This document shows, piece by piece, positions 4,495 to 33,907 of a stretch of 64,000 nt of DNA (its first letter is position 1; each line of letters begins with the position of its first letter). A program made the position numbers and the translations under genes. A model generated the notes under the pieces. It worked only from the letters and a program-made list of their open reading frames with translations, was not told the DNA's origin and made no database searches. This DNA comes from Anaerolineales bacterium (lineage in GTDB: Bacteria > Chloroflexota > Anaerolineae > Anaerolineales > Villigracilaceae), in NCBI GenBank assembly GCA_050013095.1, contig JBEKFY010000016.1, positions 1,145 through 65,144 on the forward strand. The letters are read 5' to 3'.

Positions 4495-4628
4495 ACACCC
4501 TCCCAATATGGATATGCCAAGTTTACAGACCTTCCTTGAAGAAGTATACATTATTATCGATATATAAAACCCGGGTTAATTTCTAGGCATTTGTACCTTC
4601 TTTTAGCTTGAATATTTTTTGAAAAAAC

Positions 4629-6690: not shown

Positions 6691-7657
6691 TCAGCCTCTC
6701 GCAAAAGCCGACAAGATCCGCCCCACTTTCCCTGTCTATATAAGCTCCCTGCCGGGAAAGGACGGGGTGCCGGCCCTGGCAATCGAATCACAAAAAAGCA
6801 TCATGGATGTCAGCAGGCGTTTCTTCCACTGGGCCAAGGCAGAAGGGATACACGGATTCCAGTCCATGCCGCAGTCCTGGATCGAAACCCTGAAGGTGGC
6901 CCCTTTTGCGGCCGAGATCCCGCGCTCCCATATCTATGTGACCGAAGAGGAGATCCTGCAGATCGCACGGATACCTGTCCTACCGGATGACCTGGCCGGT
7001 CTCCGTGACAAAGCGGCGGCGTGCATGTTATTCCTGTCCGGAGCCCGAGCTCAGGCTTTCACCACTCTTCCCATCCAGGCAGTCTTCCTGGAAAACCATT
7101 CCATCGACCAGTTCCCCTCTCTGGGCGTAAAAACGAAATTCAATCGATCGATGACGACGTTCCTGCTGGAGATCCCCGAATTACTGGCTGTCGTCCAGGA
7201 GTGGGACACACTTGTACGGGCCCAGCTCTCCCCATCCAGTCCATGGTATGCCGTCATTAATAACCAATGGGGAGAGCAGCATATAACCGATAAAAACCCA
7301 GGGCGCAACCGGGTTGAATCCCTTGATAAACGCATGAAGCGATTAATCACCCAAGCCGGCCTGACATTTAAATCCGCCCACAAATTCCGCCACGGCCACG
7401 CGGTCTATGGACTTCTTCACGCCCGCACGCCGGCTGATTTCAAAGCGGTCTCGATGAATCTGATGCACAGGAGTACAGAGATTACCGATCAGATCTATGC
7501 ATTTCTTTCTGAAGGTGATCTCAAAGCGCATATCCTCAAGTTAGCCGGCAATCCGATCATTGGTCAAAACGGCGAATTGGAAGCGATGATCCGTGGTTCC
7601 AACAAGGAAGAGCTAAAACATGCCCTCGAAGTGATCGGCGAAATGATCGCCAGGTGA
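6560..7657 (+). CDS. Tyrosine recombinase/integrase (second copy, different sequence)
   Basis: ATG 6560 is preceded by AAAGGAAG. It has an N-terminal SAM-like core-binding region. Catalytic-type motifs: SGARAQAF (Arg), HKFRHGHA (HxxR), LMHRS, DQIYAF (Tyr). Confidence 0.8.
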   Translation: MILRDNYLRVKDHLLYLHEVHQVQMVTVQSYWTYLRHLLLWLDDQPLAKADKIRPTFPVYISSLPGKDGVPALAIESQKSIMDVSRRFFHWAKAEGIHGFQSMPQSWIETLKVAPFAAEIPRSHIYVTEEEILQIARIPVLPDDLAGLRDKAAACMLFLSGARAQAFTTLPIQAVFLENHSIDQFPSLGVKTKFNRSMTTFLLEIPELLAVVQEWDTLVRAQLSPSSPWYAVINNQWGEQHITDKNPGRNRVESLDKRMKRLITQAGLTFKSAHKFRHGHAVYGLLHARTPADFKAVSMNLMHRSTEITDQIYAFLSEGDLKAHILKLAGNPIIGQNGELEAMIRGSNKEELKHALEVIGEMIAR

Positions 7658-7860
7658 CGATCTCTTAGTCCGAGAGACGCCGCATCAACTCTGGAGCTGG
7701 ATACCCTCATTCGTCAATCCATCCACGACGGCTACCATCGTCAAATCGAAGTTATTGGGCAGATCATGGCCGGAAGATCAATTCAACTTCATCACATCCC
7801 ATTCTCTGAGAAGAGCCCAGCTTATCCAAATACTCATCACTCTTCATCCATGGAGGAAGT

Positions 7861-9429
7861 ATGACTGAGAGTGTGAATTGTCAGGACGGGTTTGTATCCA
7901 GCAGTCTGGATCATACGGCAAAGACCCAGCAGCCAGAGATCAGAATGGTTTTTGACCGAGAGATCGTTGTGAATAAGTTTCAATTTATTTCCTTTTACCT
8001 TCTGGCGGATACCATCTGCCCGGAACGTTTGGTTGAAATTGCGGACCGATACCCCACCGTCCCGCTCAACTGGCCAGAGCCGGCTCACGAGGTATTCGAA
8101 GGAATCCTTAATGCGGTCAATCAACTCCTTCTTGAGGAGACGAAAAAAAACGAGCAATTCCAGAGTGCCTTCCAGAAGCACCAGGAGGAGGTCGCCGCGT
8201 TGAAGGAGCGGATTCGCTTTCGCGAAGAAGAGGTCAGTTATCTTCAGGAGCAGGTCGATGACCTGAAGGAAAAGCTGCACTTTCGCCGCGAGAGCAGTGG
8301 AAGGCGACCTTCAACGGCTGATTTTCCCGGTTTGACTGGGGAGGACTCTCAAGATCCTTCCCCTTGCTTTCCAGATAGCGAATCCGATCGATCAGCGGTG
8401 AATTCCCTGGAACGCTCCGATCCACCCGGCCTGCCGGAAGAACCCAAGCCGTGGGAGCCGGCAAGTAGGATGGAGGCAGCCGAGGATGGCCCAATTGAAT
8501 CCCAGCCTATGGAGGATCCAGTCAGGGAAAGGAATTCATGGTCAGACGGGGAATTACCGGAAGGAGCAATGACCACGGTGGAATGGGTGGAAAACAGTAT
8601 GACCCTGGGCATGGCCTTCGAGGAATGGCATAGGCTGGACAGGGGATTCTCTGCAGAAGAAAGGCAGAGGGTCGTTTCTGTCTTAAAGATCGTTGGCTCC
8701 GGTACGGTTTCCAAGGCTGATATCCTGGAGAACTTAAAGGGGATGATTGACCCACAACTTAAACCTCAAAGTGTCGCTCGCTACCTGCGGGAGATGGTCG
8801 AGAAGTACAGCCTGTTGAAAGGGAGAAAATATTTGATCAAGGAAAAACATAGTTTGGGTCGTCGGGAGAGAGCCTATGATCTCACGATTTTGGGTAAAGC
8901 CGCTTACCGTTCCATTTCCGGGTTGATAGAAGAGACGCCAAAAGATATCGAGATGATCGCCATTCATAAAACGCCGGACCATTGCGAATTCGTAGACCGG
9001 GCGACCAAAGGATTCAGCCACTTGGGATTCGATGTCTACTGGAAATTTGAAGCCCCTGTATGGCATGGGGTAAAACTGACCGCAGACCTCATGGTGAACA
9101 GCCAGGAGCGGGGCCAATATTATGTATTCACGCTAACCCATGGGCAGCTTAAGGCAAATAAATTGACCGCGAAGCTTAACTTGGCAACCCAATCTACTGG
9201 CCAAATTATCTATATCTTGACGCGAAAGCAGGTGGAAGCCGAGAATGAAGGGTGGAAAGCCATCTGTTATTGGGCATGGAACACCCACCACGACAAGGAT
9301 CTGACCGTCTACTTACTTGGCTTGGATACCCTCGAACAACTCGCCCTAAGCAAAGCCGGTAGCCGGATCGATCCCTGGTTTCTACAAAAAACGCTGCGGG
9401 TTTCCGAACATTCGAACCCCTTTGCTTGA
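7861..9429 (+). CDS. Hypothetical protein: coiled coil, acidic/proline-rich linker, winged-helix-like C-terminal half
   Basis: RBS GGAGGAAG lies before the ATG. Coiled-coil segment: EETKKNEQFQSAFQKHQEEVAALKERIRFREEEVSYLQEQVDDLKEKL. wHTH-like segment: RERAYDLTILGKAAY. It faintly resembles replication-relaxation-type proteins (from memory, weak). Confidence 0.6.
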   Translation: MTESVNCQDGFVSSSLDHTAKTQQPEIRMVFDREIVVNKFQFISFYLLADTICPERLVEIADRYPTVPLNWPEPAHEVFEGILNAVNQLLLEETKKNEQFQSAFQKHQEEVAALKERIRFREEEVSYLQEQVDDLKEKLHFRRESSGRRPSTADFPGLTGEDSQDPSPCFPDSESDRSAVNSLERSDPPGLPEEPKPWEPASRMEAAEDGPIESQPMEDPVRERNSWSDGELPEGAMTTVEWVENSMTLGMAFEEWHRLDRGFSAEERQRVVSVLKIVGSGTVSKADILENLKGMIDPQLKPQSVARYLREMVEKYSLLKGRKYLIKEKHSLGRRERAYDLTILGKAAYRSISGLIEETPKDIEMIAIHKTPDHCEFVDRATKGFSHLGFDVYWKFEAPVWHGVKLTADLMVNSQERGQYYVFTLTHGQLKANKLTAKLNLATQSTGQIIYILTRKQVEAENEGWKAICYWAWNTHHDKDLTVYLLGLDTLEQLALSKAGSRIDPWFLQKTLRVSEHSNPFA

Positions 9430-9519
9430 AGGAAGGTCGGAAGAACCGATCTCATGCTCCAAGTCCCATATAAGTGGTTACGCGCATTACTCAACGCGCT
9501 TTTCATCAGGAGAAAGCTC

Positions 9520-10389
9520 ATGTCCACTTCCACACAAGATCCCTCAGCAGGCTCACCCCGACCATTACCCCTCCTTTCCGAGCTCCTTCCACATCCCCGA
9601 AAATCCTTCACTCTGAATTTCAACTTTTTCCGGTGGGTCTCGAAGATCACACCCTGGGTGGCCCCTATTCCGAGCGCCTTCTTTGTCGCCCGCTCCTCGA
9701 TGAACCACCTGGGGACGCCCCTCCCCATCGCCATCGTCCTGGCCGCGGCGATCGAGCTGCTGGGCCTGACCAGCGTGCACACCTGGCTGCGCTTGTCCAA
9801 CTGGAATTTGACCAGGCGCAAGAGCGATCCCGGCGCCCCTACCCACCTCGCCGTCCTACTCACCTTCCTGTATTTCGCGATCACCCTGGGCATGATCACC
9901 CTGCTGGAGGTGTTCCCTGACCTCTCCCAGTACATGCCGGCTGTGACCCCCTTGCTCACCGTGATCGGGGCGTTCAACCTGGCCCTGCTTTCCCAACAGG
10001 AGCAACGCGAGGCAGCAGTCCGATCCGATCGCGAGGCTCGGAAAATTGAACGGTTGAAGAAGAGGGAAATTGAACGGTCAGGGAATGGTCAACATCAGGG
10101 GAAATCGACCGGTCGGCCCAAAGGTATCCAGGCGTCTCTCTCAGGTTCAAACCCGGAAAACAGAGAGAAACAACAGGTCAATCCCGGTCAGAAACTGACC
10201 GCCGAGGAAGCTTTGAACGCCCTGGTCAAGTTTTTTGAACAGAACCCGGCCGGCTCGTACAGTGCAGCCGGCCGTGCAGCGGGGCGGTCAAAATCATGGG
10301 TGGTTTGGGCGTTGAATGAACTGGAATCCGAAGGAAGGATCAATAAAAATAACAGGCAGATCACTGTTACTCGCTTGAGTCCGTTATAA
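9520..10389 (+). CDS. Hypothetical membrane protein with C-terminal winged-helix-like domain
   Basis: The ORF runs 9454-10389. Preferred start is ATG 9520 after AGGAGA. It has three or more hydrophobic helices, a basic coiled segment and a C-terminal wHTH-like stretch (SYSAAGRAAGRSKSWVVWALNELESEGRI). Confidence 0.5.
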   Translation: MSTSTQDPSAGSPRPLPLLSELLPHPRKSFTLNFNFFRWVSKITPWVAPIPSAFFVARSSMNHLGTPLPIAIVLAAAIELLGLTSVHTWLRLSNWNLTRRKSDPGAPTHLAVLLTFLYFAITLGMITLLEVFPDLSQYMPAVTPLLTVIGAFNLALLSQQEQREAAVRSDREARKIERLKKREIERSGNGQHQGKSTGRPKGIQASLSGSNPENREKQQVNPGQKLTAEEALNALVKFFEQNPAGSYSAAGRAAGRSKSWVVWALNELESEGRINKNNRQITVTRLSPL

Positions 10390-10630: not shown

Positions 10631-10661
10631 TAATCAAAAAGGCCGGCTAATTAGCGGCCTT
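10631..10661 (-). terminator. Rho-independent terminator of the toxin/antitoxin operon
   Basis: On the minus strand: AAGGCCG-loop-CGGCCTT hairpin overlapping the stop codon, followed by TTTTTGATT. Confidence 0.5.
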
Positions 10662-11090
10662 AAACGCATTGGTGATAATTTCCTTATGACGAAGAGCTAT
10701 TGACCTTGATGAGTTTACCTTACTCACAATTATTCTTGCATGGTCTTTCAAGATTTCTCCGATAATACGTTTTTGGGGATCTGATATTAATTGACCAACA
10801 ATTTCCTCGTATGAAAGTATATACCACACCCTGTCACAATCTAAAAAAGAATCATATTTCAAGAAACTACTATAAATAGATTTTTTTAGAACAAGATGAT
10901 TCGGGATCAATTTTTCCTTTGAATTGACTTTTAGAAGAAGGGGGTATTCATCGAATCCAACCACAACGAAATACTTATCCGAAGGAATCAATCGGGGCGG
11001 TAAAGCTGTAAAAAGATATAATATCTTTCCGGGTCCAATATTGGTGCTTGCTTCTTCTCTGGTAATCCCCCTGGGGACTAATGCTGGCAT
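10647..11090 (-). CDS. Putative toxin partner of the Panacea antitoxin (no recognisable domain)
   Basis: A 147-aa ORF starts 2 nt after the stop of the DUF4065 gene, on the same strand, with a shared terminator. I recognise no motifs in it. Confidence 0.5.
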   Translation of the reverse strand: MPALVPRGITREEASTNIGPGKILYLFTALPPRLIPSDKYFVVVGFDEYPLLLKVNSKEKLIPNHLVLKKSIYSSFLKYDSFLDCDRVWYILSYEEIVGQLISDPQKRIIGEILKDHARIIVSKVNSSRSIALRHKEIITNAFKAAN

Positions 11091-11092
11091 AT

Positions 11093-11593
11093 TTAGCTAT
11101 TCATGTACTCAAAAATTTCATCGGCGTTTGCAAGGCTCTTGATAATAGATTCAAGGGAAATATCACTCCGGGCCTGTTTATAAGGTTCTTCTTCGTGAAC
11201 AATATCCCATAACTCTTGATAGCTCAATGGGGAATATTTATCAATAGCCTTATTAAGAGCCTCTATATCACTCTCGCTAAGGTAATCTAAATTCGGATCG
11301 CGATTGGGCTTTATTGTGATCCAATCCTCGACCCTGAAAGCCTCTTGGGGATTTTCTTTAATGGGGGATAAGCCGTCGCCTCGTACTGCCTTGATAATGT
11401 CGTAAGCACCACTTGGGACAGGCCCATCCTTCATTGCTACATAGTAATCACCTGTAATTAGGCGACCATAACCCTCTAGATGGAATTTGTCCGCATAATA
11501 CATAATTTTAACGATATGAAAGAGATCGCCATTTTTATGTGAAATATAAACAATGGCCTCAATTGCCTTTTGAATATCAATGAATTTTGGCAT
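11093..11593 (-). CDS. Panacea/DUF4065 (SocA-like) antitoxin-domain protein
   Basis: IVKIMYYADKFHLEGYGRLITGDYYVAMKDGPVPSGAYDIIK matches the DUF4065 signature (K-hYYAD...G-PITG..Y.A...GPVP). Confidence 0.75.
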   Translation of the reverse strand: MPKFIDIQKAIEAIVYISHKNGDLFHIVKIMYYADKFHLEGYGRLITGDYYVAMKDGPVPSGAYDIIKAVRGDGLSPIKENPQEAFRVEDWITIKPNRDPNLDYLSESDIEALNKAIDKYSPLSYQELWDIVHEEEPYKQARSDISLESIIKSLANADEIFEYMNS

Positions 11594-11848
11594 TACTCAT
11601 TCCCTTTATTTTTCTTCTGCTCTTCCGGCATTGATTCCGTTTTCAGCAACGCACCAAATATCTCTATAAACGGTGCGCCCTACAAACTGACGGGCTTCTC
11701 CGCTCCGGCCTTCTTTTCTTCCTTCTCGGTTTTTTGATTGTGCTCTTTCATTTGGTTTCCGGTTGCATTCACCGGGCTTCTGTATTAGAATCATTGCCGG
11801 GAAAGCGGGGCTAGCCAACGTCCGCTTCCCCGGCATGTAGGGCGACTT

Positions 11849-11937
11849 GGAGAGGTGTCCGAGAGGCTTATGGAACTCGTCCCTTAAACGAGTAAGGCGC
11901 TACCACGCCTTCACGGGTCCGAATCCCGTCCTCTCCG
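11849..11937 (+). tRNA. Atypical type-II (long variable arm, Ser-like scaffold) tRNA or tRNA pseudogene; anticodon loop CCCUUAA
   Basis: Manual fold of 89 nt: GGAGAGG-TG-TCC-GAGAGGCTTAT-GGA-A-CTCGT-CCCTTAA-ACGAG-T(AAGGCG-CTACCA-CGCCTT)C-ACGGG-TCCGAAT-CCCGT-CCTCTCC-G. All stems are Watson-Crick, but position 33 is C and the T-loop reads TCC instead of TTC. No CCA is encoded. Confidence 0.6.
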
Positions 11938-12424
11938 TCGTCCCGGGGGAATTTCATGATAATATGTCAATAGAACAAACGTGCTAAACTTTTGTATAAC
12001 CATTATACACGATATAGAACGAGCGTTCAATGGAACAATAGTCTGATGAACTGATGTGCTAATCGGCGAAAACGCTTATTTGTCAACACATAATACCACC
12101 CCACGAATCCATTCTGATTCACTTTGGGGGCTTGGGTCTGTCAAAGGGATAATTTCCAAAATAATTATCGAAAAGGGAGACGGGTAAAAATATGCCATCG
12201 CTGAAGCAAAGAAGCGCATACAAAGCACTCAATTACCAAACGTGAGCACACCAGCACGAGGTGATCGCCCAGGTGTTCGCAACGGACCCCCGCCTGCCTT
12301 CGAAACGCACCTTTCGTAGTTCTAATCCAGAATGCCTGGCCCAAATTGGTGAGAATAGTATCATAACAGGGAATAATAAATCGAAATCGGATAAACTTCC
12401 GCCCAACGCCGGCTCCTAATACAG

Positions 12425-13765
12425 TCATTTCCCGGCAGAGACCTCATCCTGTCTTCGGCATAATTTGGTCAATTTCTTCGCAATCAAGTCGCGGGTCGCG
12501 GCTGGAACTTTCTCGTCCTGCCAGACGTTCCCCAGCTCGTCGGACAGATGCTTCAGCGTCCAGACCGCTACGGATGGGTTTTCGACAGTTAGCTGGCTTT
12601 CCTGATTTGCCCAGATCACCACCGGAGTCACCCACTGTTCAATGCCGTCCGCTTTAAGGAAATTTCCTAGCCGGCCGGCATTGTTATTTGCCTGGCGACT
12701 AGGGCTTTTCTTCTGGGAATGCCAATGATTACCGGCTCTATATTCCCACCGGTCGCCTATATTTCGATATTCCCCAGTAAGATTCTTGATCTCTAGAGCC
12801 AATACCCCGGGAGGACCAACCAAAACGATATCCAAGTCGGCCCTATTTCGTCCCGGCAGATTAATGTTCCAAAAGAGTGACCAGCTCCCATCGAGGGTTT
12901 GGAGAATGATTTCCTTTGTTCGCTCTTCCCCTTCTTGGCCAGCACGGAAGTTATCAATCTGCTTGTCTAATCCATTAAGAAACCGATTGAGAAGATAAAA
13001 CAACACACTGAATATTCCAATAATACCCACAAATGTGGCGATGGTTAAAAGACCGACGGGAGATTTAATCACTTCTGAAATTGTCAGAGTTGGCTTTGTT
13101 GAGGCAAGTCTTGTAAACCCCCAAATCAAGTATGACAGTGATCCTCCAAATATTACTCCGAGGATTAATCCTTGAATAAGTGCCAATTGATATTTCTTAC
13201 GTTCCGCGTAACTTCTCCTGCCGGCAACGATCTGGATAAATCCCGCTGACGGAGTAGGATCATTAATCGTTTGATTAAGGCGCACCAGCATCAATGCAGC
13301 AGCAGCCCGCCTGACTCGTTCTTCCCAAGCATTCTCAGCAGCATATCCGAGGTCTTTAAGGGAGATCTGTTTCGTCTCGACCAGCTTTCCCATCAACTGA
13401 CCCTTGAACGGTTGGAAAGGCCATGGAGTCACCCGGGCTTGCTCCAGGCTAATGCCAATTTGGAATGGTCCATTGGGAACTTGGACAGGCAGGCATTCAA
13501 GCCTCTCATCAGCCGGTGGCCTAGCTTTAGTTTGTTCCGGCTGTGCTAATAAGATATGCGCAGCCTGCTTGAGGCGCGGATTATATGCGTACGTAGCCGC
13601 CCATTCCAGCCGAGTTTGATCAAGGTAGCCTTCCTGCAGGAGCTCACCCAATGGTCGGGGATTGCTCTTAAGCCAGAGGACTTTCCGAGCCTCTGCAAGA
13701 TTCATGGTCAGAGATTGATTATTGTGTTGACCGAAGATGTCATGTGATGACTTGTCCATAACCAT
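12425..13765 (-). CDS. Membrane-anchored NERD (nuclease-related domain) protein
   Basis: C-terminal NERD-like core: ADLDIVLVGPPGVLALEIKNLTGEYR. Two hydrophobic helices: LALIQGLILGVIFGGSLSYLIWGF and GLLTIATFVGIIGIFSVLFYLL. The N-terminal region has two related repeats of about 55 aa. Confidence 0.75.
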   Translation of the reverse strand: MVMDKSSHDIFGQHNNQSLTMNLAEARKVLWLKSNPRPLGELLQEGYLDQTRLEWAATYAYNPRLKQAAHILLAQPEQTKARPPADERLECLPVQVPNGPFQIGISLEQARVTPWPFQPFKGQLMGKLVETKQISLKDLGYAAENAWEERVRRAAAALMLVRLNQTINDPTPSAGFIQIVAGRRSYAERKKYQLALIQGLILGVIFGGSLSYLIWGFTRLASTKPTLTISEVIKSPVGLLTIATFVGIIGIFSVLFYLLNRFLNGLDKQIDNFRAGQEGEERTKEIILQTLDGSWSLFWNINLPGRNRADLDIVLVGPPGVLALEIKNLTGEYRNIGDRWEYRAGNHWHSQKKSPSRQANNNAGRLGNFLKADGIEQWVTPVVIWANQESQLTVENPSVAVWTLKHLSDELGNVWQDEKVPAATRDLIAKKLTKLCRRQDEVSAGK

Positions 13766-14224
13766 TCTTCCCTGATGTAAGATTGAGAAAATGTACGAAG
13801 GACGCCTTTTGAGGCTAGACGTCTACCCCAGCGAAGACTGCATCCACGACCACAACGATAGCGTCAAACTCACTAGGCAATGACCATAGCCAAGTGATTA
13901 AGATCACTATATAACCTTCTAGTTTGCGTAACTATAACTATCTTGTTGCAATACGTATCCTTATCGGATTACGAAAGTGTAAACGGTTGGAGAGTCGAGG
14001 AGCGAAGGACATTTCTTAGTTTGATCCCTCAACCTTTACGAAAAAAACCAATAACTCTGCTATTTTTCCACTTTTGCAAAGCCCTTGAGATATTATCAAA
14101 ATACGCCTTAGGGATTGAAAATATACACCATATACATCCCTTGGATGTGAAGGTGTGCTAGAATTTAATCAAATGAATCTGGTGGGGGTTTTCTCATGCG
14201 ACTCTTGTCGGTCCAGGAGACCAT

Positions 14225-15136
14225 ATGTCTGTAATCATCGACAGTGAGCGTGGGCGAAAAGCAGCCGATTTGCTGTTCAACGCATTCTCAACTACCGGCA
14301 TTCACGGTCGGACTGATATGCCAGAAGATGTACTGCCGGCCGCTGCGACCCGCGGTTCTCTTGAACATATTCTTTTCATCACTTTGACAGTGTGCATAGA
14401 TTACCAGCGCGATGCAGCCGCCTTGTGGGAAAGCTCCCGCCATACATTCGGTGATCCAGCCACCCGTTATCTGTTTGACCCCCGAGCTCTCCATGAAACA
14501 ACTTTATCGACCATTGTTCGCGATATGCAGAAATATGGATTATCTAAAAAGCCTCAGCAGGACGCTTATATCTGGTCTACGGTGGGAATATCATTTTACA
14601 AAAAGTGGCAGGGGGATCCGAGAAATTTCCTAGAAAATTGTAAGTGGGGAGCTCTGAGGGTTCTTGAACATCTAAAGAATGACATCCATCCCTTAAACGA
14701 GCGCCAAGTCACAGACTTTCCCTTCCTACGCGGAGATAAGATCGGTCCGCTCTGGTTGCGTATGCTACGGGATAATGCGGGAATAACCAAAATCCAAGAC
14801 CTTGACCGGGTACCTATTCCGGTTGACATTCATATAGGCAGAGCAACCCTGGCGTTAGGAGTTGTGCGAGGTCAATATTCGGGAGGGTTTGGTAATTTAT
14901 TTGAGACGATTCGGAAAGCTTGGTTCGAAAGTGTTCGCGGTCTTCAAGTGGGAGAGCGCCCGATGATGGCGCTGGATGTCGATGAGCCACTTTGGCATCT
15001 TTCACGCTTCGGTTGCACATACCGAGACAAGCAAAGTGGCGTATGCCCCCTAATTCAGAGCTGCGAAGCAAAATCACTTTGTATCAAAGGGAAGGTAGAC
15101 ATACACAATGGGAGCACTATAGAGCTGTATACATGA
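14225..15136 (+). CDS. Divergent HhH-GPD / endonuclease III-like DNA glycosylase-family protein with a 4-Cys cluster
   Basis: RBS AGGAGA. HhH-like FLRGDKIGPLWLRML, then PVDIHIGRATLALG (compare EndoIII GVGRKTANVVL ... AVDTHIFRV, which carry its catalytic Lys and Asp). C-terminal Cys cluster: CTYRDKQSGVCPLIQSCEAKSLC. Confidence 0.55.
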   Translation: MSVIIDSERGRKAADLLFNAFSTTGIHGRTDMPEDVLPAAATRGSLEHILFITLTVCIDYQRDAAALWESSRHTFGDPATRYLFDPRALHETTLSTIVRDMQKYGLSKKPQQDAYIWSTVGISFYKKWQGDPRNFLENCKWGALRVLEHLKNDIHPLNERQVTDFPFLRGDKIGPLWLRMLRDNAGITKIQDLDRVPIPVDIHIGRATLALGVVRGQYSGGFGNLFETIRKAWFESVRGLQVGERPMMALDVDEPLWHLSRFGCTYRDKQSGVCPLIQSCEAKSLCIKGKVDIHNGSTIELYT

Positions 15137-15585
15137 AGACACTCTGCATCGTACCTTGCGGAATGCGAAAAATCTGGAAAAGTAATCCCACCGCCGGCCC
15201 AACGCCAGCAGGGGAAGTCTATACGGGATCATTTGCCCGAAAATGTCAGGAATATGCCTCTGTCTTTTATCCGGGCGCTTACGTCATCCTTTCGGCAAAA
15301 TATGGGTTTCTTTGGCCTGACGATATCATCCCAGGAGATTACAACGTCACATTCAACGATTCGAAAACGCACCCTATCAAGATATCTGAGATGATTGAGA
15401 GTGCCCGATCAAAAGGGCTTTATGTATATGACCAATTAGTGGTAGTTGCTGGAAAACATTATGTGGACACGGCTAAGCAAGTCTTCCCGGGCAAACAGTT
15501 CCATGAGCCCCTGAAGGGTTGTACCGGAAATGGCTTTATGTTGCAACGAATGACTGAAGCCATTCGAATAAAGCTTCCCCTATAA
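15133..15585 (+). CDS. Small conserved hypothetical protein (DUF6884-like by memory), translationally coupled to the glycosylase-like gene
   Basis: ATG 15133 overlaps the upstream TGA (ATGA). The N-terminal 47 codons of ORF 14992-15585 were discarded. Motifs: CIVPCG and ILSAKYGFLWPDDIIPGDYNVTF. Confidence 0.55.
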   Translation: MKTLCIVPCGMRKIWKSNPTAGPTPAGEVYTGSFARKCQEYASVFYPGAYVILSAKYGFLWPDDIIPGDYNVTFNDSKTHPIKISEMIESARSKGLYVYDQLVVVAGKHYVDTAKQVFPGKQFHEPLKGCTGNGFMLQRMTEAIRIKLPL

Positions 15586-15821
15586 ACTGCTGGTTTACGA
15601 GCACCACTCTCCCACCATCCAACTTTGACTGATAATATAATCAATCTTCTTGAGCCTGTGGCTTAAGATCGATCATAGCCCGACAAGACAAAATGGAATA
15701 ATCAGGGATTAGATTTTCTCACGGAAGCATGCATAACAAGGTTTAAACCGTAATTCATTCCTCAGCTCGTCTCTCCACCCTCTGAAATCCATTCGGATTA
15801 AGTTTTTTATATGATAAACAA

Positions 15822-17621
15822 TTATAAATCCTCGTATATAGCACCTATATTTAGTTGGTGACCATCAACCAGAAGTTTTACAGTCTTGATAACCAATTCG
15901 GCACGTTTTCTCAAGAAGAGATTAAAGTCATTCTTTATTTTTATCGATTTTTCTTTTTTGGACAATCCTTCATAGCCGCCATTTGATAGTTCTTGAATTG
16001 GAATCAAATGGGATTGAAGGCGTTCACGAATAATTTCTTCAGTTGTCCATTCATAACGGTCTTTTAGGTATTCAAGGGGGTCTTTTCGACCAATTGAAAT
16101 ATTAGTTTTGTCGATTATCAAAGCACAGTTCAAAGCCCGAAAACTATCAATTTCCCCCTCCTTCAGCAAAGCATCTGGGAAGATATGATGATATTGTCGC
16201 TGTCCAATATTATTTATGTCCAATCGTTCTCCTGTGGAGAAATCCAATGCCCCTAAACGTGAGGCTACAGCTAAAATACCTCGACCTCGAATGGTGGTTC
16301 GTTTAGGCCACTCAACTGGAATCAATTCTTCTACTTCAACAAGAGAATACTCAGAGAGAATTGGTACATCGGTAAAGCTGTATTCTGTGCCATCTTCTTT
16401 TAGCTCGGTTCGTATAATACCGCCTAGTGCATTAAAATCTGAAAAGGCATGTGTAGCTGCTGCGTTTTCGTAACGGTCAGTAAAGAAGGCGTACCAAAGA
16501 TATTTTTTCAATAGGAGCTCATCCTGTCCTAGTTTATCTCCCGATTCTGGAATATCCGCATATAATGCGGCGATAACTGCCAAAACAGCATTGGTCGGTA
16601 AGCGTTGTTCATCGTAGATACCTTCGCTTTTTAGGAACGTCGCCATGCGATACAAGCCGCGCTCCATTTTCCCCCAATTTTCAACCATCTTGCGCTTGTC
16701 CATATCCCAAACGCCACGCTGATTCGGTAAAAATCCCTGCAAAAGGGAGGATGTTGTAAGGATTAACTCTGACAATGTGGAATAGCGAGCCACTTCAGGA
16801 TGCTTTTCGTTGAGTTCATCTTCTAAATCATGAAGCGATTTGCCCATTACATTTTCAACTTCAGCGACAACGATGTCATACATCGAAAGCGGTTTGCTGT
16901 TCGTGTTCATGTTAATAAACACTTTTAACGCTACAGATTTGTCTGTGTTTGAAGGTAATGATAAATAAGGCAGATTGTAATTCGCAACAACAGAGCGCAA
17001 ATCTTTGATTCTGTCGCTTACTCGTTTTTGAAAATCATAGAATTTTTTCAACTCGCTCTTACCGCCATCCTTGGGCTCATGTGGACTTGTTGCCTTTTCA
17101 ATCCAGTCATCAATTTCTTTCTGAATATCTTCGGGGCGGAGAAGGTGAACTGGAATCATTCCTCTCTGCAAACATTGCGCGGGGTCATCACACCAAATCG
17201 GATATCGTTCACCATTCTTCTTGTAGTAACGCCCGCGCCAGTATGTAATCATATCCTCCATTTCTTCGTCCTTGTCATAGTTGTCAAACTCTTTTAGATG
17301 GATAAAGTATGTCTCCCACTCGTAATTATTATGAAAGACACGCCACAACGCGGTAAGTCTTTGTTGACCATCAAGCAAATGTTCATAGATACGACTACTC
17401 AATTCGGGCGCGGTTGCTAAATATCGAGAAATGAATTTTTCCTCATCGCCTACCTCCAGAATGAGTGTGATGCCAAGTGGGAGGTTTTGAATTACGGTTT
17501 CAATCAGACTGCAAATTCGTCCTCGATCCCAGGCTTCGAAACGTTGAAATCGTGGCAGTCTGATCTCAGCTTGTTGAATTTTCCCATACCAATCACTAAG
17601 TTTACGATTTCTAGCTTCCAT
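15822..17621 (-). CDS. GmrSD-family (DUF262 + DUF1524) type IV restriction enzyme, BrxU-like
   Basis: N-terminal DUF262/ParB-like region: RLPRFQRFEAWD ... LLDGQQRLTAL. C-terminal His-Me/DUF1524-like region: QYHHIFPDALL ... IIDKTNISIGRKDP. It lies at the distal end of the BREX operon. Confidence 0.8.
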   Translation of the reverse strand: MEARNRKLSDWYGKIQQAEIRLPRFQRFEAWDRGRICSLIETVIQNLPLGITLILEVGDEEKFISRYLATAPELSSRIYEHLLDGQQRLTALWRVFHNNYEWETYFIHLKEFDNYDKDEEMEDMITYWRGRYYKKNGERYPIWCDDPAQCLQRGMIPVHLLRPEDIQKEIDDWIEKATSPHEPKDGGKSELKKFYDFQKRVSDRIKDLRSVVANYNLPYLSLPSNTDKSVALKVFINMNTNSKPLSMYDIVVAEVENVMGKSLHDLEDELNEKHPEVARYSTLSELILTTSSLLQGFLPNQRGVWDMDKRKMVENWGKMERGLYRMATFLKSEGIYDEQRLPTNAVLAVIAALYADIPESGDKLGQDELLLKKYLWYAFFTDRYENAAATHAFSDFNALGGIIRTELKEDGTEYSFTDVPILSEYSLVEVEELIPVEWPKRTTIRGRGILAVASRLGALDFSTGERLDINNIGQRQYHHIFPDALLKEGEIDSFRALNCALIIDKTNISIGRKDPLEYLKDRYEWTTEEIIRERLQSHLIPIQELSNGGYEGLSKKEKSIKIKNDFNLFLRKRAELVIKTVKLLVDGHQLNIGAIYEDL

Positions 17622-18929: not shown

Positions 18930-20960
18930 TTATTGTCTAAAATGCTTCTTCGAATACTCCAATACTTCACTGGTCGATAACTGTACTGAAGATGGACCAT
19001 TGCGCACATAAAACTCTTCAAGCCCGTCAATCTTCAGGAAAACTGGAGTAGAACTAGTTTTACAATCCACCCGTAAGATTTTCTTATCGTCAATTACTTT
19101 CAGTACATATTGAATTTGATTTACGAACTGCTTGCCTATTTTGCCGTTGATGAGGTTAGCAAAATGAAGCAAATATTTATCATCATTCGGGAGTTGATCC
19201 AGGTCGAGCCCAAGAATATTGCCATTATCCTCCACCCCAACCAACAATATACCACCCTCCGTGTTCAGAAAGGCAACGATCGTTTTCAACACATCATGCT
19301 CAATGCCTTTATCAATCTGTTTTGCCAGGATATTCCAACGAAGGGTAGACTTGAACTCCAGCTTGGCATTTTCGCCAGCTTGTATCAATTTCTCTTCGTC
19401 TGACAACCCTTTCTCTTGAAGCTTTTCAGATACGTTTATAGTCTGCTTTTTATTGTCGGGTTGGGTTACGGGTTTATTGTAATAATGCTGCGGGTACTGC
19501 TTTTCCTCCGCAGTTTTGACAACTATCTCCTCCCCCTCCCCTGAGGCAAAGTACTTGAAAGTTACATCAGGATAAGTGTTGTCAATTCTCATCAATTGGT
19601 CTTTGATACGTTTTCTGCCTTCGATAGAAAACTTCAAAAGCATTTCCACATCTTCTTTGGGTGCTTCACCAGCAGGGAATAAAATCTTTATCAAGCCAGA
19701 TAGCGATTTAGTAATCCCATCCCGATCCCGGGTAGAAATATCATCAGACAGCTCAAAGTTCTCCAAGTATTTTTGAGAGAAATCATAGCTCCTGAGTTTT
19801 CTCAGGATCTCTGCCAGATAATCAACGACGAATCCATATCCACGAGAAAACATCTCACCCCGGATGATTTCCACTTCCCATCCTGGGATGTAAAAATGGA
19901 GGCGATCGAGAAAGGCAGAGTCATAGTATTGGGTAGGAAGGTCGTCGAATAGGTTCGTATGCCTGAGCATATACTCGAGGTCATGGGTGGTATTCCCAAC
20001 AAAGGCCATGGACGCTTCAGCGCCGAGCGTTTCTATGCCTCTTGAAAAAGTTTTATTGGCCATGTAGTTCTTAAGGATATCGACCAATGCCTTATTTGCC
20101 GTTTTCTTCTTACCCGCAAATTCATCGAAAGCGACGATATCCCAGTAACCGACTAATCCAATCCTTCCGGTTGTATTATTCACAAATAGCTTTGGCACAG
20201 TTACTTCTCCACCTGAGATAAGGATCCCATGTGGAGAAAAATCGGAATAAATATGAGACTTGCCTGTCCCCTTGGGACCCAATTCGATCAGGTTGAAATT
20301 GCGCTCGCAGTAGGGAACCAGGCGCATTAATTGGAGCAATTTTGCTCTCGATGAGAACTTTGATGGATCGAAGCCGATGCTTTGGATAAGCAGATCGATC
20401 CATTCGTCCAGCGTGAACTGCTTGCGCGCTTCCAGATACTGTTCGAAATCAAAATTAGACATCTGGATCGGTTTGATCGAGACTAGGATCCAAGGGACAA
20501 CCTTGGGATCATCAGTATATTTGTATTCGATGTCTGAGATACACCAAACTCCACTGACCAGAAGCTTAGGATGCTTCTTGACCGTATCCGAATCGATCCA
20601 TACTTCGCTAATACCCAGATTGGAGAAGGCCGCTTCGTAGGTGTCGTTCCGCTCATTGAGTTCTACGCTGACTTTGTCAATTACCCTATGCCGCCCTTTT
20701 TCCCTGATGAGGGATTTGACAAGATTGGCTTCATTACGATGCACATAATGTTCACGAATTACATCTTTGACCGTCTCTATCCCTGATTGCAAACTGGTTT
20801 CATCTGAAGTAGCACAATATTGGCCCAACAGGTATTCAAGCACGTAGGTCGGTACAACCGCATTACCTCTAACCGCTTTGACCAGGTCCTTGCGGACAAC
20901 CAAGCCAGCAAAGTGTTCGTTGATTTTTTGGTCCAGGTAGTTCATCACATTTCCTTCCAA
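18930..20960 (-). CDS. brxL: BrxL-family AAA+ protein, with the C-terminal Lon-like domain apparently replaced by an AlbA_2/Schlafen-type domain
   Basis: Canonical BrxL N-terminus: LDQKINEHFAGLVVRKDLVKAVRGNAVVPTYVLEYLLGQYCA. Walker A LGPKGTGKSH, Walker B WDIVAFDEFAG. The last 150 aa or so read ENAKLEFKSTL...VLKTIVAFLNTEGGILLVGVEDNGNILGL (AlbA_2 signature). No GPSAG-type Lon serine motif is present. Confidence 0.85.
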   Translation of the reverse strand: MEGNVMNYLDQKINEHFAGLVVRKDLVKAVRGNAVVPTYVLEYLLGQYCATSDETSLQSGIETVKDVIREHYVHRNEANLVKSLIREKGRHRVIDKVSVELNERNDTYEAAFSNLGISEVWIDSDTVKKHPKLLVSGVWCISDIEYKYTDDPKVVPWILVSIKPIQMSNFDFEQYLEARKQFTLDEWIDLLIQSIGFDPSKFSSRAKLLQLMRLVPYCERNFNLIELGPKGTGKSHIYSDFSPHGILISGGEVTVPKLFVNNTTGRIGLVGYWDIVAFDEFAGKKKTANKALVDILKNYMANKTFSRGIETLGAEASMAFVGNTTHDLEYMLRHTNLFDDLPTQYYDSAFLDRLHFYIPGWEVEIIRGEMFSRGYGFVVDYLAEILRKLRSYDFSQKYLENFELSDDISTRDRDGITKSLSGLIKILFPAGEAPKEDVEMLLKFSIEGRKRIKDQLMRIDNTYPDVTFKYFASGEGEEIVVKTAEEKQYPQHYYNKPVTQPDNKKQTINVSEKLQEKGLSDEEKLIQAGENAKLEFKSTLRWNILAKQIDKGIEHDVLKTIVAFLNTEGGILLVGVEDNGNILGLDLDQLPNDDKYLLHFANLINGKIGKQFVNQIQYVLKVIDDKKILRVDCKTSSTPVFLKIDGLEEFYVRNGPSSVQLSTSEVLEYSKKHFRQ

Positions 20961-23453
20961 CTAAAGATCAAAATCCGTATTGAACGAACGCCTGAGTTGA
21001 TAATCCATAGAACGATACTCTCTATAATGCGATGTGCTAGCAACGGATTCTTCCATTTTTAGATAAACCGTTTGATTGTTCACATCATCCGCTTTTCGAC
21101 TCAGGATAAAGCGTACCCGCACTTCCCTCTCACGAGGGTTAGGGGATGCCAAATCAAAATCAAGATAATGAGAATCGGAGATCAGCATATTATCCTGAGT
21201 ATAAATCCCAGCTCGGATGTGTCTGGCTTGAAGCTTAGGAGAAACAGGTTCGGTCTGGAAAAAAACGACCGAAATTTGTCCAGATGAAATGATCGAAGAT
21301 GAACTGGTGATGATATCAACTTCCACAATGCCCACATCGGCTGCACGGATCTTGTTAATCTTGATAACAGGGATGATTACTTCCTGCAAGGCTGCACCAC
21401 CATGGACGTAACGACTTCCTGAACCTTGTAGCCGCAGACGATTGATCGACTTGGGAATCATTACCTGAAAATCACCTGTCAAACCTAATTCGCTGAATTT
21501 AAAATCTTTCATACTTTTATTAGAATTCAATCCATTTCCAATAATAAACCTGCGAGTACGATAATAGATTTCTTCACCCTCGACATCCTGATACGCAAAT
21601 TCGCTTTCATCAAGAGGTTGGTTCTGATAAATAAAACCATGGTCTGAAGTAATTAGAATATTGGAAAAATAGGAATCATACAATTTTTTTAAAATAGCCT
21701 TTATATCTTCAAAGGTTTTATCAATGATATCAAAGACCCTTCCTTCCGATAATTTATCATCGCCAGTGTGGTCAATTTGATCGTGGTAAATATAAACGAC
21801 TTGAGCTCCTTTCGTTACTTCCCGGTATTTATCTCGATTCATCGAGAGTAGGTCTTCGGCGCGAAGTGCAATCGCACCCTTTTCGACCGCATTCGAAAGG
21901 ATATTCGACCGGTTATCAAGGCCTTTCGAGGATTGCCCATCTACTTGGACGCTTCCATCTTTTAATATCGTCAGTTCATGATGAGGTAAAAGAGCCGCCA
22001 TGCCCAGTTGGGTATAGGTTGGTAGCGAAGACAAAATTGGTTCTATCTCTGCTGTATACCCTTCTTCCTTTTCTATCTCTCCAGCTAACTCCTGCCCAAT
22101 CTCATACCGAAGAGCATCCGAGATGATCACTGCAACTTTATTTTTGGTACTTAGATATTCACTTATGTAATGGGTGAAAAACTCAGATTGACTCAGAAAT
22201 GGGGCGGCTTCCCAGATTTGAGCAGAGTCGACAAAATGTTGCCATTTATCATTGAGTTCGAGTAAATAGTTGTTTGAGTAGAGGTTTTCAATCCGTTCTA
22301 TCAATTTTGATAAGAGGGTAGTCGCCTTCGAAGACCGTACATGGAAAATTAATTTTCGGTAGTACTGATCCAGACGATACCAGGTGCTCTGATATTTGCG
22401 GATTCCATCGGGCATGGATTCCATGCGCAGGTCGGCGTTATCCAATTCGTTGACGAATTTGGAGCCGAAATTCAGGGCTTCATAAATGTCGCTGAATTCT
22501 CTGAACCAATGCGTGTTGCGCCTGCGCCAGATAAGATTATCACATTCCCCTGCAGAAAGAGTGCGGTCGAGAATCTGCTGGGTAAGGGTGGCTAGAATTT
22601 TCTTGTCGATTAGCTGGAAATAATCAATATCGATTATTTTTTGGATCGACCGGTTCTGTAAATCATTCTCAATACCCAGAATATCGGCATACTCATTGGA
22701 GAGAGCTTCGAAGGCAGCTTGATAATGGACACTATCTCGCCAACGTTTGAGGAAGACCAGCGCATCTTGCGTGAGAGTCGAAGTCTCTTCAAGGCTTTGG
22801 AAATAACATGCTTTGAAAAGAGTGATCGCAAAGTCCTGAATGCCTGGAGTTTGGGATTTGTAACCAAATTGGGCTTCGAGCCGGCCCCACAGGAATGTAT
22901 CCAAATTACAGAGGTGGATCAACCCAAATCTCTCATGTTTGTCTTCAGCAAGATCCCCCAATAAAATTTCCAGAACGCTTTCCACCCGATTTTCAATATC
23001 ATTGACGCAAACTGCCAGCATCTTGGTTCGAATGGCATTGTGGGTATCATCCGCAACAAGCCGAGACTTGAGGGCAAGGCGACGTTTTTCGTCCTTAAAA
23101 AACTCTATGTGTTCCTGGATCAGATCCCAAAGGCTAGGCGCGAGCTCTAATTCGCTCATCCACAAAGACACCTGATCGCCGCTAAACTCTCCTTGTGCCA
23201 GTAGGACATCCAACAACCAGTTATTCAATTCTTCTGGTTTCGGACCTTCGTGATAGAGCAAGAATTTTTGCCCGGGCTTCACACGCAGGACGTGATATTT
23301 AACTCCATATTCGTTATTCTTCAGTTCAATCTTTTCCACCCCCTCAAGCTGCAGGGATTCAAATTCCTGCCGTAATTCCTTCTTTTCGTCATACCAGAAT
23401 ACGATCCGGTGTTTATCGAAAAGGCGGGTAATGGCCTGTGCAATTTTATCCAT
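20961..23453 (-). CDS. pglZ: BREX PglZ alkaline-phosphatase-superfamily protein
   Basis: An 830-aa protein in the canonical position between pglX and brxL. The PglZ-type core (VAVIISDALRYE ... ILITSDHGF) matches the family signature. Confidence 0.9.
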   Translation of the reverse strand: MDKIAQAITRLFDKHRIVFWYDEKKELRQEFESLQLEGVEKIELKNNEYGVKYHVLRVKPGQKFLLYHEGPKPEELNNWLLDVLLAQGEFSGDQVSLWMSELELAPSLWDLIQEHIEFFKDEKRRLALKSRLVADDTHNAIRTKMLAVCVNDIENRVESVLEILLGDLAEDKHERFGLIHLCNLDTFLWGRLEAQFGYKSQTPGIQDFAITLFKACYFQSLEETSTLTQDALVFLKRWRDSVHYQAAFEALSNEYADILGIENDLQNRSIQKIIDIDYFQLIDKKILATLTQQILDRTLSAGECDNLIWRRRNTHWFREFSDIYEALNFGSKFVNELDNADLRMESMPDGIRKYQSTWYRLDQYYRKLIFHVRSSKATTLLSKLIERIENLYSNNYLLELNDKWQHFVDSAQIWEAAPFLSQSEFFTHYISEYLSTKNKVAVIISDALRYEIGQELAGEIEKEEGYTAEIEPILSSLPTYTQLGMAALLPHHELTILKDGSVQVDGQSSKGLDNRSNILSNAVEKGAIALRAEDLLSMNRDKYREVTKGAQVVYIYHDQIDHTGDDKLSEGRVFDIIDKTFEDIKAILKKLYDSYFSNILITSDHGFIYQNQPLDESEFAYQDVEGEEIYYRTRRFIIGNGLNSNKSMKDFKFSELGLTGDFQVMIPKSINRLRLQGSGSRYVHGGAALQEVIIPVIKINKIRAADVGIVEVDIITSSSSIISSGQISVVFFQTEPVSPKLQARHIRAGIYTQDNMLISDSHYLDFDLASPNPREREVRVRFILSRKADDVNNQTVYLKMEESVASTSHYREYRSMDYQLRRSFNTDFDL

Positions 23454-23461
23454 GGAATGAC

Positions 23462-26980: not shown

Positions 26981-27002
26981 GAGAATGATGCTCCCGTCTT
27001 GC

Positions 27003-30461: not shown

Positions 30462-30476
30462 GGTATTGTTCCTTAT

Positions 30477-31085: not shown

Positions 31086-31092
31086 AACCCAA

Positions 31093-33818: not shown

Positions 33819-33907
33819 GCAAAAACCTCCTAGCTGAGATTTTTGCCAACCGCAGTCCTCCGGGTTAACGAAAAACCATAGCCTTGCGAGCTATGGTTCG
33901 TGAAAAG

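Follow-up and report, generated by a model that had tools for sequence, protein, structure and literature searches.

A predicted HhH-GPD-superfamily glycosylase paired with a DUF6884 protein: a candidate two-gene base-excision defence module in an Anaerolineales genome

Within a window of 64,000 nucleotides from the genome of an Anaerolineales bacterium (Chloroflexota, Villigracilaceae; GenBank assembly GCA_050013095.1, contig JBEKFY010000016.1, positions 1,145 to 65,144 of the forward strand), two overlapping genes, here called A and B, encode a putative DNA glycosylase of 303 residues and a DUF6884 protein of 150 residues. By its predicted structure, protein A is a divergent member of HhH-GPD, a superfamily of helix-hairpin-helix (HhH) glycosylases, closest to the AGOG/Qng1 branch, and it carries a loop of four cysteines that probably binds a [4Fe-4S] cluster. 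We propose that A and B together make up a self-contained, horizontally mobile base-excision defence module directed against non-canonical bases in invading DNA, and we put the probability of this reading at about one half. The structural and family assignments of the two proteins, and the linkage of their genes, are made with high confidence.

Gene structure

The locus was first singled out in a reading of the bare DNA letters (here the sequence-only reading), which described two open reading frames (ORFs) joined by an ATGA overlap; both frames, and the overlap, are present (Table 1). In a simple scan of positions 13700-15900, neither a sigma-70-like promoter (+ strand) nor an intrinsic terminator was detected. 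Both are real genes rather than chance ORFs, since homologues are numerous (673 for A, 366 for B). For B, an alternative TTG start at 14992, which would give a protein of 197 residues, appears in the mechanical ORF list and in the gene call behind P0271. The 150-residue form is preferred because the family alignment begins at its Met, and because a 4-nucleotide NTGA overlap with A is kept in 21 of the 25 pairs in which B directly follows A; loci L038 and L051 appear to share this overlap.

Protein A: conserved motifs and predicted fold

Protein A belongs to a well-populated family. A collection of 5.8 billion proteins holds its 673 homologues (best expect value, E, 1e-176 when the window's own protein is set aside), and 548 clusters match it in a search of representatives clustered at 50% identity. 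Most of the homologues have exactly 302 residues and 60-84% identity; they are archaeal (Methanoliparum, Argoarchaeum, Methanosarcinales and Methanomethylicia; Staphylothermus hellenicus also carries the 302-residue form) as well as bacterial (Chloroflexota, TA06, Omnitrophota, Nitrospirota and others). Such identity across the two domains points to recent inter-domain transfer.

Three elements of A had been recognised by the sequence-only reading, and an alignment of 34 family members shows all three to be conserved. The HhH element with its lysine, LRGDKIGPLWLRML, spans residues 168-181, in which L168, R169, G170, K172, I173, G174, P175, L176, R179 and L181 are invariant. The aspartate motif PVDIHIGRA (residues 199-207) had been placed about 25 residues beyond this element; the motif is there, with I198, P199, V200, D201 and H203 invariant, and the distance from K172 to D201 is 29 residues, so the earlier figure is approximate. 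The four cysteines, at 264, 274, 280 and 286, are likewise invariant and have the C-x9-C-x5-C-x5-C spacing that had been read from the sequence; three homologues bear the UniRef name 'Iron-sulfur cluster loop'. Also invariant are an MPED motif (residues 32-35), an IDYQR motif (58-62), several Trp residues (W68, W117 and W128 among them), D153 and H155. We take the position of the HhH lysine to be equivalent to that in the G-R-K-T-A of EndoIII. A lysine in this element is the mark of bifunctional glycosylase/lyases, and the invariance of K172 makes A a putative member of that class.

An AlphaFold2 model of A, built on the alignment, has a predicted local distance difference test score (pLDDT) of 89.7 and a predicted template modelling score (pTM) of 0.87. 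Its fold is the two-lobed, all-helical one of the HhH-GPD superfamily, in which the active site lies between the lobes; in the sequence, the HhH element is followed by the conserved aspartate of PVDIH. When the model was compared with the PDB by Foldseek, the top matches were eleven chains of Qng1/DUF2419 (E 4e-6 to 6e-5, template modelling (TM) score 0.52-0.58, about 300 columns), the best single one being 7u07 (E 4e-6, TM 0.58). A second tier comprised EndoIII-DNA complexes (1orp, E 2e-4), then MutY/MUTYH, Mig and NTHL1; across both tiers the Foldseek probability is 1.0 and the TM score 0.43-0.58. It is because of these matches to Qng1, EndoIII and MutY that we regard A as a divergent HhH-GPD protein, a placement reached by structure prediction, direct searches with its sequence and profile having given no family.

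Sequence comparisons fit a superfamily-level placement. The sequence-only reading had suggested looking in Pfam for HhH-GPD (PF00730) and for the EndIII 4Fe-4S loop, and A matches neither PF00730 nor the loop family PF10576; PF00730 is also absent from the families matched by the 34 homologues. When these homologues were scanned one by one, 31 touched the AGOG family PF09171 weakly (best E 0.0017, sub-threshold), and one distant member of family A, P0235, scores 27.7 bits against the AGOG gathering threshold of 26.1 bits. Three of the 34 touched PF10343 (Q_salvage), at E 0.15 or worse. In an hhalign comparison of the A profile with an EndoIII-family protein encoded at locus L005, only the Cys loop was aligned (CTARNPQHSICPLRDIC, E 0.0064, low probability), including a C-P-L-x3-C element, and homology to EndoIII was not established by this route. 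Protein A can be placed only in the HhH-GPD superfamily, and lies outside Nth, AGOG and Qng1 by the membership criteria of those families. What stands of the suggestion that A is an EndoIII-like glycosylase is the superfamily, supported by the predicted fold, the Lys/Asp pair and the four-Cys loop; a strict likeness to EndoIII does not stand.

Some proteins of family A have an additional N-terminal DUF7669, DUF7662, DUF7664 or DUF7225 domain (P0116, P0169, P0235, P0130, P0131, P0123 and L073:5796-6899), and DUF7669 weakly matches the linker-histone winged helix. These domains may be extra modules for reading DNA or its modifications.

Protein B: a DUF6884 protein

We know of no DUF6884 protein with an established biochemical function. 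The identification of B with this family, suggested in the sequence-only reading, is borne out by its match to Pfam PF21818 (E 1.3e-11, 45.2 bits, cut-off 30), and the two motifs noted there, CIVPCG and ILSAKYGFLWPDD, are found at residues 5-10 and 52-64. The CxxxK and LSAxxG motifs of DUF6884 are kept in the subfamily of B as C9-x3-K13 and L53-S-A-K-Y-G58. Members of DUF6884 are described as YaaA-like, with these two motifs and a positively charged cleft, and a nucleotide was modelled by AlphaFold3 in a flipped position within the putative active site (PMC11701544). The Bacillus subtilis member YfjM was enriched on DNA baits carrying abasic sites and ribonucleotides (PMC10220248; PMC11701544). 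In the papers listed by a literature search on DUF6884, nothing ties it to a glycosylase or to defence.

Beyond DUF6884, the relation of B to YaaA/DUF328/DpdC is at superfamily level only. Its score against YaaA (PF03883) is 13.4 bits, below the cut-off of 29.6, and among the models of PADLOC it matches PDC-M57A over its full length (E 1e-12) and DpdC marginally (E 9e-4, over 59 residues only). Its AlphaFold2 model (pLDDT 95.7) has phage DUF6884/YaaA-like proteins as Foldseek neighbours in the viral library BFVD (TM 0.6-0.78); YaaA itself (5caj) is not in the top 50 PDB fold matches, despite the statement in Pfam that the families are related.

The only PDB fold match to B with a probability above 0.9 is 2q07 (AF0587, 'unknown function'; E 8.6e-3, probability 0.98, TM 0.46). 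This structure is in turn matched by ArcS2 of the Sulfolobus virus STSV2 (STSV2_16; E 3.6e-8), in an alignment that runs through the AF0587 segment LLLPCTARKPY. The PC-x3-KPY motif is that of archaeosine synthase, ArcS (PMC5699537, PMC10516641), and because the viral ArcS2 matches through this motif we regard 2q07 as archaeosine-synthase C1-like. The STSV2 ArcS2 is a standalone DUF5591 catalytic core, and both ArcS2 and DpdC act on dPreQ0 in DNA (PMC10516641). Protein B has P8-C9-x3-K13 (LCIVPCGMRKIW) after its first strand, in the same place as the PC-x3-K of AF0587; the KPY-x2-S-x2-H continuation of the ArcS motif is absent from B.

Linkage of the two genes

How constantly A and B occur together was judged from 66 loci, found by scanning one genome per species (185,579 species); their ORFs were called and searched with hidden Markov models for the two proteins. 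Nothing but fragments of A is left in 16 of the 66, some of them cut by contig ends. Beside the 50 intact A genes, B lies directly downstream in 25, is fused to A in three, lies directly upstream in two to four and is convergent with A in one; a recognisable remnant of B is all that is left in five to seven, and no B was found in 12, two of which lack room for it on the contig. An intact B thus accompanies about two thirds of the intact A genes. Fusions in both orders, A-B and B-A, also occur among the representative proteins (P0124, P0130, P0131, P0171, P0179, P0216 and P0138), and the pairwise identities of A and B are correlated across 27 loci (Mantel r 0.72, a value that none of 2000 permutations reached). 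The co-occurrence that the sequence-only reading had proposed to measure is therefore clear, by adjacency, shared overlap, fusion and correlated divergence. No neighbour family is present in more than 9 of about 60 loci, and those that are shared look generic; with no third conserved gene, the module consists of two.

The association also survives deep divergence. A megaplasmid of Halomicrobium has an A-like gene, 27% identical, with a convergent DUF6884 neighbour, and one A gene is paired with a bona fide YaaA-family partner in place of DUF6884. Close homologues of B, with 56-61% identity to the window's own, have true AGOG-family proteins as partners in Thermococcus piezophilus and Archaeoglobus sulfaticallidus (L074:7222-8450 and L073:5796-8450). 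These AGOG partners are about 17% identical to A and lack the Cys loop and, as aligned, the region of the HhH lysine; the PVDIH motif is kept in them as IPIPVDYRV. Since such close homologues of B have AGOG partners, the DUF6884 protein has been conserved while the glycosylase was swapped, and the survival of the association implies that its conserved theme is an AGOG-like HhH glycosylase together with a DUF6884/YaaA-like protein. In Archaeoglobus, an insertion sequence (IS) element lies between the AGOG-family gene and the B homologue.

Small size, translational coupling and a place in a defence island would also fit a toxin-antitoxin or abortive-infection system, in which A would be a genotoxic glycosylase acting on host DNA and B would neutralise it until infection. 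DNA-base-modifying toxins with antidotes do exist, as in DarT/DarG. Against this, A is intact at several loci where B is a remnant or absent (L003, L005, L012 and others), a state that should be lethal, and natural fusions join the two proteins in both orders. Members of the B family bind DNA lesions, and nothing known of them suggests inhibition of a protein partner. Mainly because of the intact A genes beside decayed B genes, and of the fusions, we reject this explanation as highly improbable.

Distribution and genomic setting of the pair

The 66 loci all come from metagenome-assembled genomes (MAGs) and are spread over more than 20 phyla in both domains. In plasmids, A has only two distant homologues, on haloarchaeal megaplasmids; a scan of viral contigs found none, and GenBank phages gave a single marginal match, an 'endonuclease III' of a haloarchaeal virus with no DUF6884 beside it. 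A phage-encoded origin of A was rejected on these results. The pair is a small accessory module, horizontally transferred and often lost. Its rarity, patchiness, co-transfer and presence in islands are not what a core operon for repair or salvage would show, and agree with the remark in the sequence-only reading that housekeeping nth and mutY genes are not organised in this way. That reading had allowed that the pair might turn out to be a queuosine-salvage type of operon; the best structural match of A is indeed the queuosine-salvage enzyme Qng1, but its distribution and context mark the pair as a mobile module rather than a salvage operon, and no queuosine/preQ0 synthesis or TGT genes were found among the annotated neighbours.

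The 102 nearest neighbours of 32 pairs match 127 Pfam families, none dominant. Commonest are PDDEXK_1, UvrD/GajB-like helicases, AAA_15, methyltransferases and integrases, along with some housekeeping genes. Neighbours recorded across the loci also include type I restriction-modification (R-M) genes, KAP NTPase, DUF499/DUF1156, a WYL regulator, EVE, PDC-M41 and prophage genes. Most annotated loci adjoin R-M, defence or prophage genes. The pair is accompanied at individual loci by PDC-M41, an SLFN-type helicase, a PDDEXK nuclease, UvrD and a methyltransferase; by an N6-methyltransferase, AAA_15/21, DUF87, SNF2 and a sacsin-like protein; by HincII, an Eco57I-type methyltransferase and an EVE protein, with an IS element splitting the pair; by N6_Mtase/HsdM fragments and a NOV_C helicase; by Rad52, PDDEXK, DUF4917 and an integrase; and by a WYL regulator, ERCC4 and a large DEAD helicase, adjoining prophage genes. 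DUF499 lies beside the pair at some loci and a KAP NTPase at another.

These data bear on the possibility that the pair is an accessory DNA-repair module, carried as mobile fitness cargo by mostly anaerobic hosts, in which A would be an AGOG-like enzyme for oxidised or damaged purines and B would bind abasic or damaged sites. AGOG is the nearest sequence family of A, Nth and MutY are classic Fe-S repair glycosylases, YaaA is a protein of peroxide stress, and baits with abasic sites or ribonucleotides capture YfjM; the very high sequence conservation of A would suit such a role, and some loci do stand beside recA/recX, nrd or other housekeeping genes. The locus is present, however, in no more than 66 of some 186,000 species genomes, scattered over more than 20 phyla and with many pseudogenes, and at the related locus L005 a canonical EndoIII-family gene is found as well, about 8 kb from the family-A gene. 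Here the pair lies in a low-GC island, elsewhere its neighbours are mostly R-M, defence or prophage genes, and the winged-helix-like N-terminal fusions (DUF7669/7662/7664) are of a kind that we infer to be typical of conflict-system effectors. A repair role is thus unlikely on balance, although more probable than the other alternatives considered here.

Four neighbourhoods deserve a brief mention. In the Chloroflexia MAG that is the closest genome relative (L001:8135-9795), a 295-residue match to PDC-M41A (E 6e-125) and a DUF5131 protein, another candidate defence pair, precede the pair. A Tag-like 3-methyladenine glycosylase with a faint QueF-like match lies just upstream of A at L020:1885-2661; a radical-SAM enzyme is found just downstream of A and a remnant of B at L014:4584-5525; and a WYL-domain regulator stands directly upstream of the pair, with a prophage adjoining, at L080:7040-7966.

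Comparison with known systems

The sequence-only reading had cited Brig1 as the precedent for glycosylase-based immunity. A closer one is provided by Dag1-17, HhH glycosylases that defend against phages with 7-deazaguanine DNA (Getz et al., bioRxiv 10.1101/2025.10.29.685425). As described in that work, the HhH-superfamily fold of the Dags, like that of A, is missed by sequence searches. The catalytic Lys/Asp pair of Dag1, K118/D184, has its putative counterpart in K172/D201; some Dags cluster structurally near AGOG and Tag, and, like A and B, the Dags are horizontally acquired and found in low-GC, defence-rich DNA. In contrast to A and B, they are single-gene integron cassettes, mainly from Vibrionaceae.

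Among solved structures it is Qng1 (PDB 7u07 and 7ulc; PF10343) that A resembles most. The K199/D231 pair of Qng1, identified by the mutants K199C and D231N named in PDB titles, is about 30 residues apart, which is nearer to the 29 of A than is the spacing in Nth, 18 in the Escherichia coli enzyme. The identity between A and Qng1 is only 14-18%, and A itself does not match PF10343. The Qng1 substrate named in the PDB titles is queuosine-5'-monophosphate, not DNA; peculiar to family A are its four-Cys loop and its DUF6884 partner.

AGOG, the archaeal 8-oxoguanine DNA glycosylase/lyase, is the nearest sequence family of A, PF09171 being the only Pfam family called near to its relatives; the window's A has no match to it at E up to 1 and so falls short of the gathering threshold. 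Bona fide AGOG proteins, as in T. piezophilus and A. sulfaticallidus, are themselves paired with close B homologues. EndoIII and MutY (1orp, 1p59, 6u7t), fold matches of the second tier, share with A the G-x-K of the hairpin, a [PA]-V-D-x-H-I-x-R motif and four C-terminal cysteines, including the C-P-L-x3-C element aligned with the EndoIII-family protein of L005. They differ in the spacing of those cysteines (x6/x2/x5 in Nth, x9/x5/x5 in A, which does not match PF10576) and are about 90 residues shorter than A. For B, the nearest group is DUF6884/YaaA/DpdC/ArcS C1, base-flipping nucleic-acid proteins, B having the CxxxK and LSAxxG motifs of DUF6884 itself. As a unit, the pair is absent from PADLOC 2.0, in which only B matches a candidate component, that of PDC-M57, and A matches no model at E up to 1.

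Proposed function

In the base-excision defence that we favour, A would bind duplex DNA through its HhH element and Fe-S loop, flip a non-canonical base into its pocket and cleave the N-glycosidic bond with D201 and K172. A would then be expected, since K172 lies in the HhH element, to use this lysine in a beta-elimination that nicks the strand, a reaction also carried out by Nth, AGOG and Dag1. Protein B would be made in a fixed ratio with A through the stop/start overlap, and would probably act in a complex with it. It might engage the same flipped base, either recognising it or converting it chemically; alternatively, as the pull-down of YfjM suggests, it might bind the abasic or nicked product, so that the lesion persists and is not handed to normal repair. 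The role of the pair would be defence against phages or other mobile genetic elements by excision of modified bases, analogous to that of the Dag and Brig glycosylases.

Which base would be excised? Given a defence role, we would allow 7-deazaguanines (preQ0, ADG, G+) roughly one chance in three. They are the best single guess because the nearest folds of both partners handle such compounds and because Dag1-17 exist: Qng1 acts on queuosine monophosphate, and ArcS C1/ArcS2 and DpdC act on preQ0 in tRNA or DNA. More speculative is a two-enzyme 'convert-then-excise' immunity, which we consider doubtful, in which B, like ArcS or DpdC, would use the cysteine of its PC-x3-K motif on the nitrile or amide side chain of a 7-deazaguanine flipped out of phage DNA, and A would excise the base and nick the strand.

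The same structural resemblances lend themselves to a different explanation, in which the pair would modify or turn over the DNA of its own host or element, B converting a 7-deazaguanine or other modified base in DNA as DpdC or ArcS2 does, and A editing, removing or recycling that base by a Qng1-like salvage from DNA or nucleotides, as a writer and eraser for the neighbouring restriction systems. The best solved-structure match of A is a queuine-salvage enzyme, PF10343 is weakly touched by three of the 34 A homologues, the best PDB fold for B is ArcS-C1-like, its relatives DpdC and ArcS2 finish modifications in DNA, and methyltransferases and R-M genes, with an EVE protein, are frequent neighbours. 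Yet in none of the annotated neighbourhoods did DpdA/TGT, QueC/D/E or FolE genes stand out, and the sequence links to Qng1, DpdC and ArcS are all sub-threshold. The HhH element and Fe-S loop are features that bind the DNA backbone, and the HhH lysine predicts strand cleavage, which is ill-suited to benign self-marking. We consider this explanation improbable.

Several observations weigh against a base-excision defence, or against its 7-deazaguanine form. Searches of Pfam, NCBIfam and PADLOC with protein A, at E up to 1, found no match, and PDB sequences gave none either, whether the query was the single sequence or the profile of 34. The intact survival of A beside decayed B genes (L003, L005) implies that B is not strictly required, and for the Dags neither an Fe-S loop nor a DUF6884 partner has been reported. 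The mean column identity of family A, 72%, is unusually high for a defence gene. Housekeeping genes border some of the loci, namely cobalamin genes in Methanoliparum and, at others, recA/recX or ftsZ/nrd on a single side. As for 7-deazaguanines, the links to Qng1, DpdC and ArcS rest on nearest folds, being sub-threshold at the level of sequence, and no preQ0-pathway gene stood out in the annotated neighbourhoods. ArcS2 is absent from the viral (BFVD) fold matches of B, and an hhalign comparison of the B profile with the STSV2 ArcS2 was not significant, for which reason we treat the ArcS link as a lead from fold and motif, not as homology.

Recognition that glycosylases can give immunity to phages with modified DNA is recent: Brig1 came first, then Dag1-17 and Brig2. 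To our knowledge, the glycosylase defences described to date are single proteins from well-studied Proteobacteria. What sets the present pair apart is that it has an obligate-looking DUF6884 partner, an Fe-S loop and a distribution across both domains. If it is a defence module, it would add to glycosylase defence an architecture of two components in which the partner is fixed, a branch of the HhH superfamily that is AGOG/Qng1-like and contains Fe-S, and a range that takes in Archaea and uncultured anaerobic phyla. It would also provide a testable function for DUF6884, a widespread family, found also in phages, for which the only lead is the binding of abasic and ribonucleotide lesions. Should convert-then-excise immunity be correct, it would be the first function for DUF6884 and would mean that chemistry of the archaeosine/queuosine type, along with a glycosylase fold like that of queuine salvage, has been recruited for immunity in Archaea and Bacteria. 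On the practical side, base-specific glycosylases for hypermodified bases would be reagents for mapping DNA modifications. Even if the pair were instead a mobile repair module, A would represent an unannotated, strongly conserved family of Fe-S glycosylases.

The surrounding island

Table 1. Genes, motifs and other features in the 64,000-nucleotide window
Feature	Position	Strand	Remarks
Gene A	14225-15136	+	303-aa ORF; Fe-S-loop, HhH-GPD-superfamily (AGOG/Qng1-like) putative DNA glycosylase/apurinic-apyrimidinic (AP) lyase
Gene B	15133-15585	+	150-aa DUF6884 protein, YaaA/DpdC/ArcS-C1-like fold; ATG start at 15133
A/B junction ATGA	15133-15136	+	TGA stop of A (15134-15136) overlaps ATG of B
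Shine-Dalgarno-like AGGAG	14215-14219	+	read from sequence; 5 nt 5' of the gene A ATG
HhH element LRGDKIGPLWLRML	14726-14767	+	A residues 168-181; invariant K172, putative Schiff-base lysine
PVDIH motif	14819-14833	+	A residues 199-203; invariant D201, putative catalytic aspartate
Four-Cys loop C264-x9-C274-x5-C280-x5-C286	15014-15082	+	putative [4Fe-4S] cluster loop
B motif LCIVPCGMRKIW	15142-15177	+	residues 4-15; C5, C9, G10, K13, W15 invariant; CxxxK motif of DUF6884
B motif ILSAKYGF	15286-15309	+	residues 52-59; I52, L53, S54, A55, G58, F59 invariant; LSAxxG motif of DUF6884
1048-aa protein	1405-4551	-	calcineurin-like metallophosphatase and novel STAND NTPase 4 domain; PADLOC PDC-S60, E 3e-98
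Tyrosine recombinases	5108-6082 and 6560-7657		two further copies in the island
522-aa ORF	7861-9429		no family match
311-aa ORF	9454-10389		no family match
147-aa ORF	10647-11090	-	no family match
SocA/Panacea-domain antitoxin	11093-11593	-	directly upstream of the 147-aa ORF
tRNA-Lys (CTT)-like element, 92 nt	11848-11939	+	found by ARAGORN; between Panacea and NERD genes
NERD protein, 446 aa	12425-13765	-	NERD domain at residues 275-385
GmrSD_N (DUF262) protein, 599 aa	15822-17621	-	best PADLOC match HEC-05
PDC-S18-like protein, 342 aa	17747-18775	-	weak DUF5655 match
BrxL	18930-20960	-	BREX; extra C-terminal Schlafen AlbA_2 domain, residues 530-661, E 1e-18
PglZ	20961-23453	-	BREX
PglX	23462-26980	-	BREX
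BrxC	27003-30461	-	BREX
BrxB	30477-31085	-	BREX
BrxA	31093-31701	-	BREX
Tyrosine recombinase	32823-33818	-	adjoins tRNA-Met; island boundary
tRNA-Met	33907-33979	-	island boundary

Taken as a whole, the left half of the window has the look of an integrative defence island located at a tRNA gene (Table 1). Between about 1 and 32 kb the GC content is 38-47%, apart from 52-54% at 6-10 kb, and from 32 to 64 kb it is 55-64%; the rise, from about 40% to about 60%, comes at roughly 32 kb. The pair accordingly occupies a low-GC, mobile and defence-rich location, set against a core of 55-64%. Its neighbours are those that the sequence-only reading had named, a NERD gene on one side and a GmrSD gene on the other, followed by a BREX block (18930-31701, - strand) that is a complete type 1 operon. 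For the GmrSD_N protein, Pfam reports the N-terminal domain only, and an HHIFP motif lies near the C-terminus. A literature search by the names PDC-M57, PDC-M41 and PDC-S18 found no description of these candidates.

The NERD protein may be a membrane-anchored nuclease: it has a weak DUF3169-like match (E 0.026) at about residues 190-272, a stretch that looks hydrophobic, and it weakly matches the N-termini of PglW and MkoA in PADLOC. The Panacea antitoxin and the 147-residue ORF are likely to be a toxin-antitoxin pair. The unusual length of the tRNA-Lys-like element could mean a tRNA with an intron, a degenerate tRNA, or an old attachment site that marks nested insertions. A mosaic of insertions is also suggested by the two further recombinases and the two unmatched ORFs (5108-10389), which lie in the segment of higher GC content.

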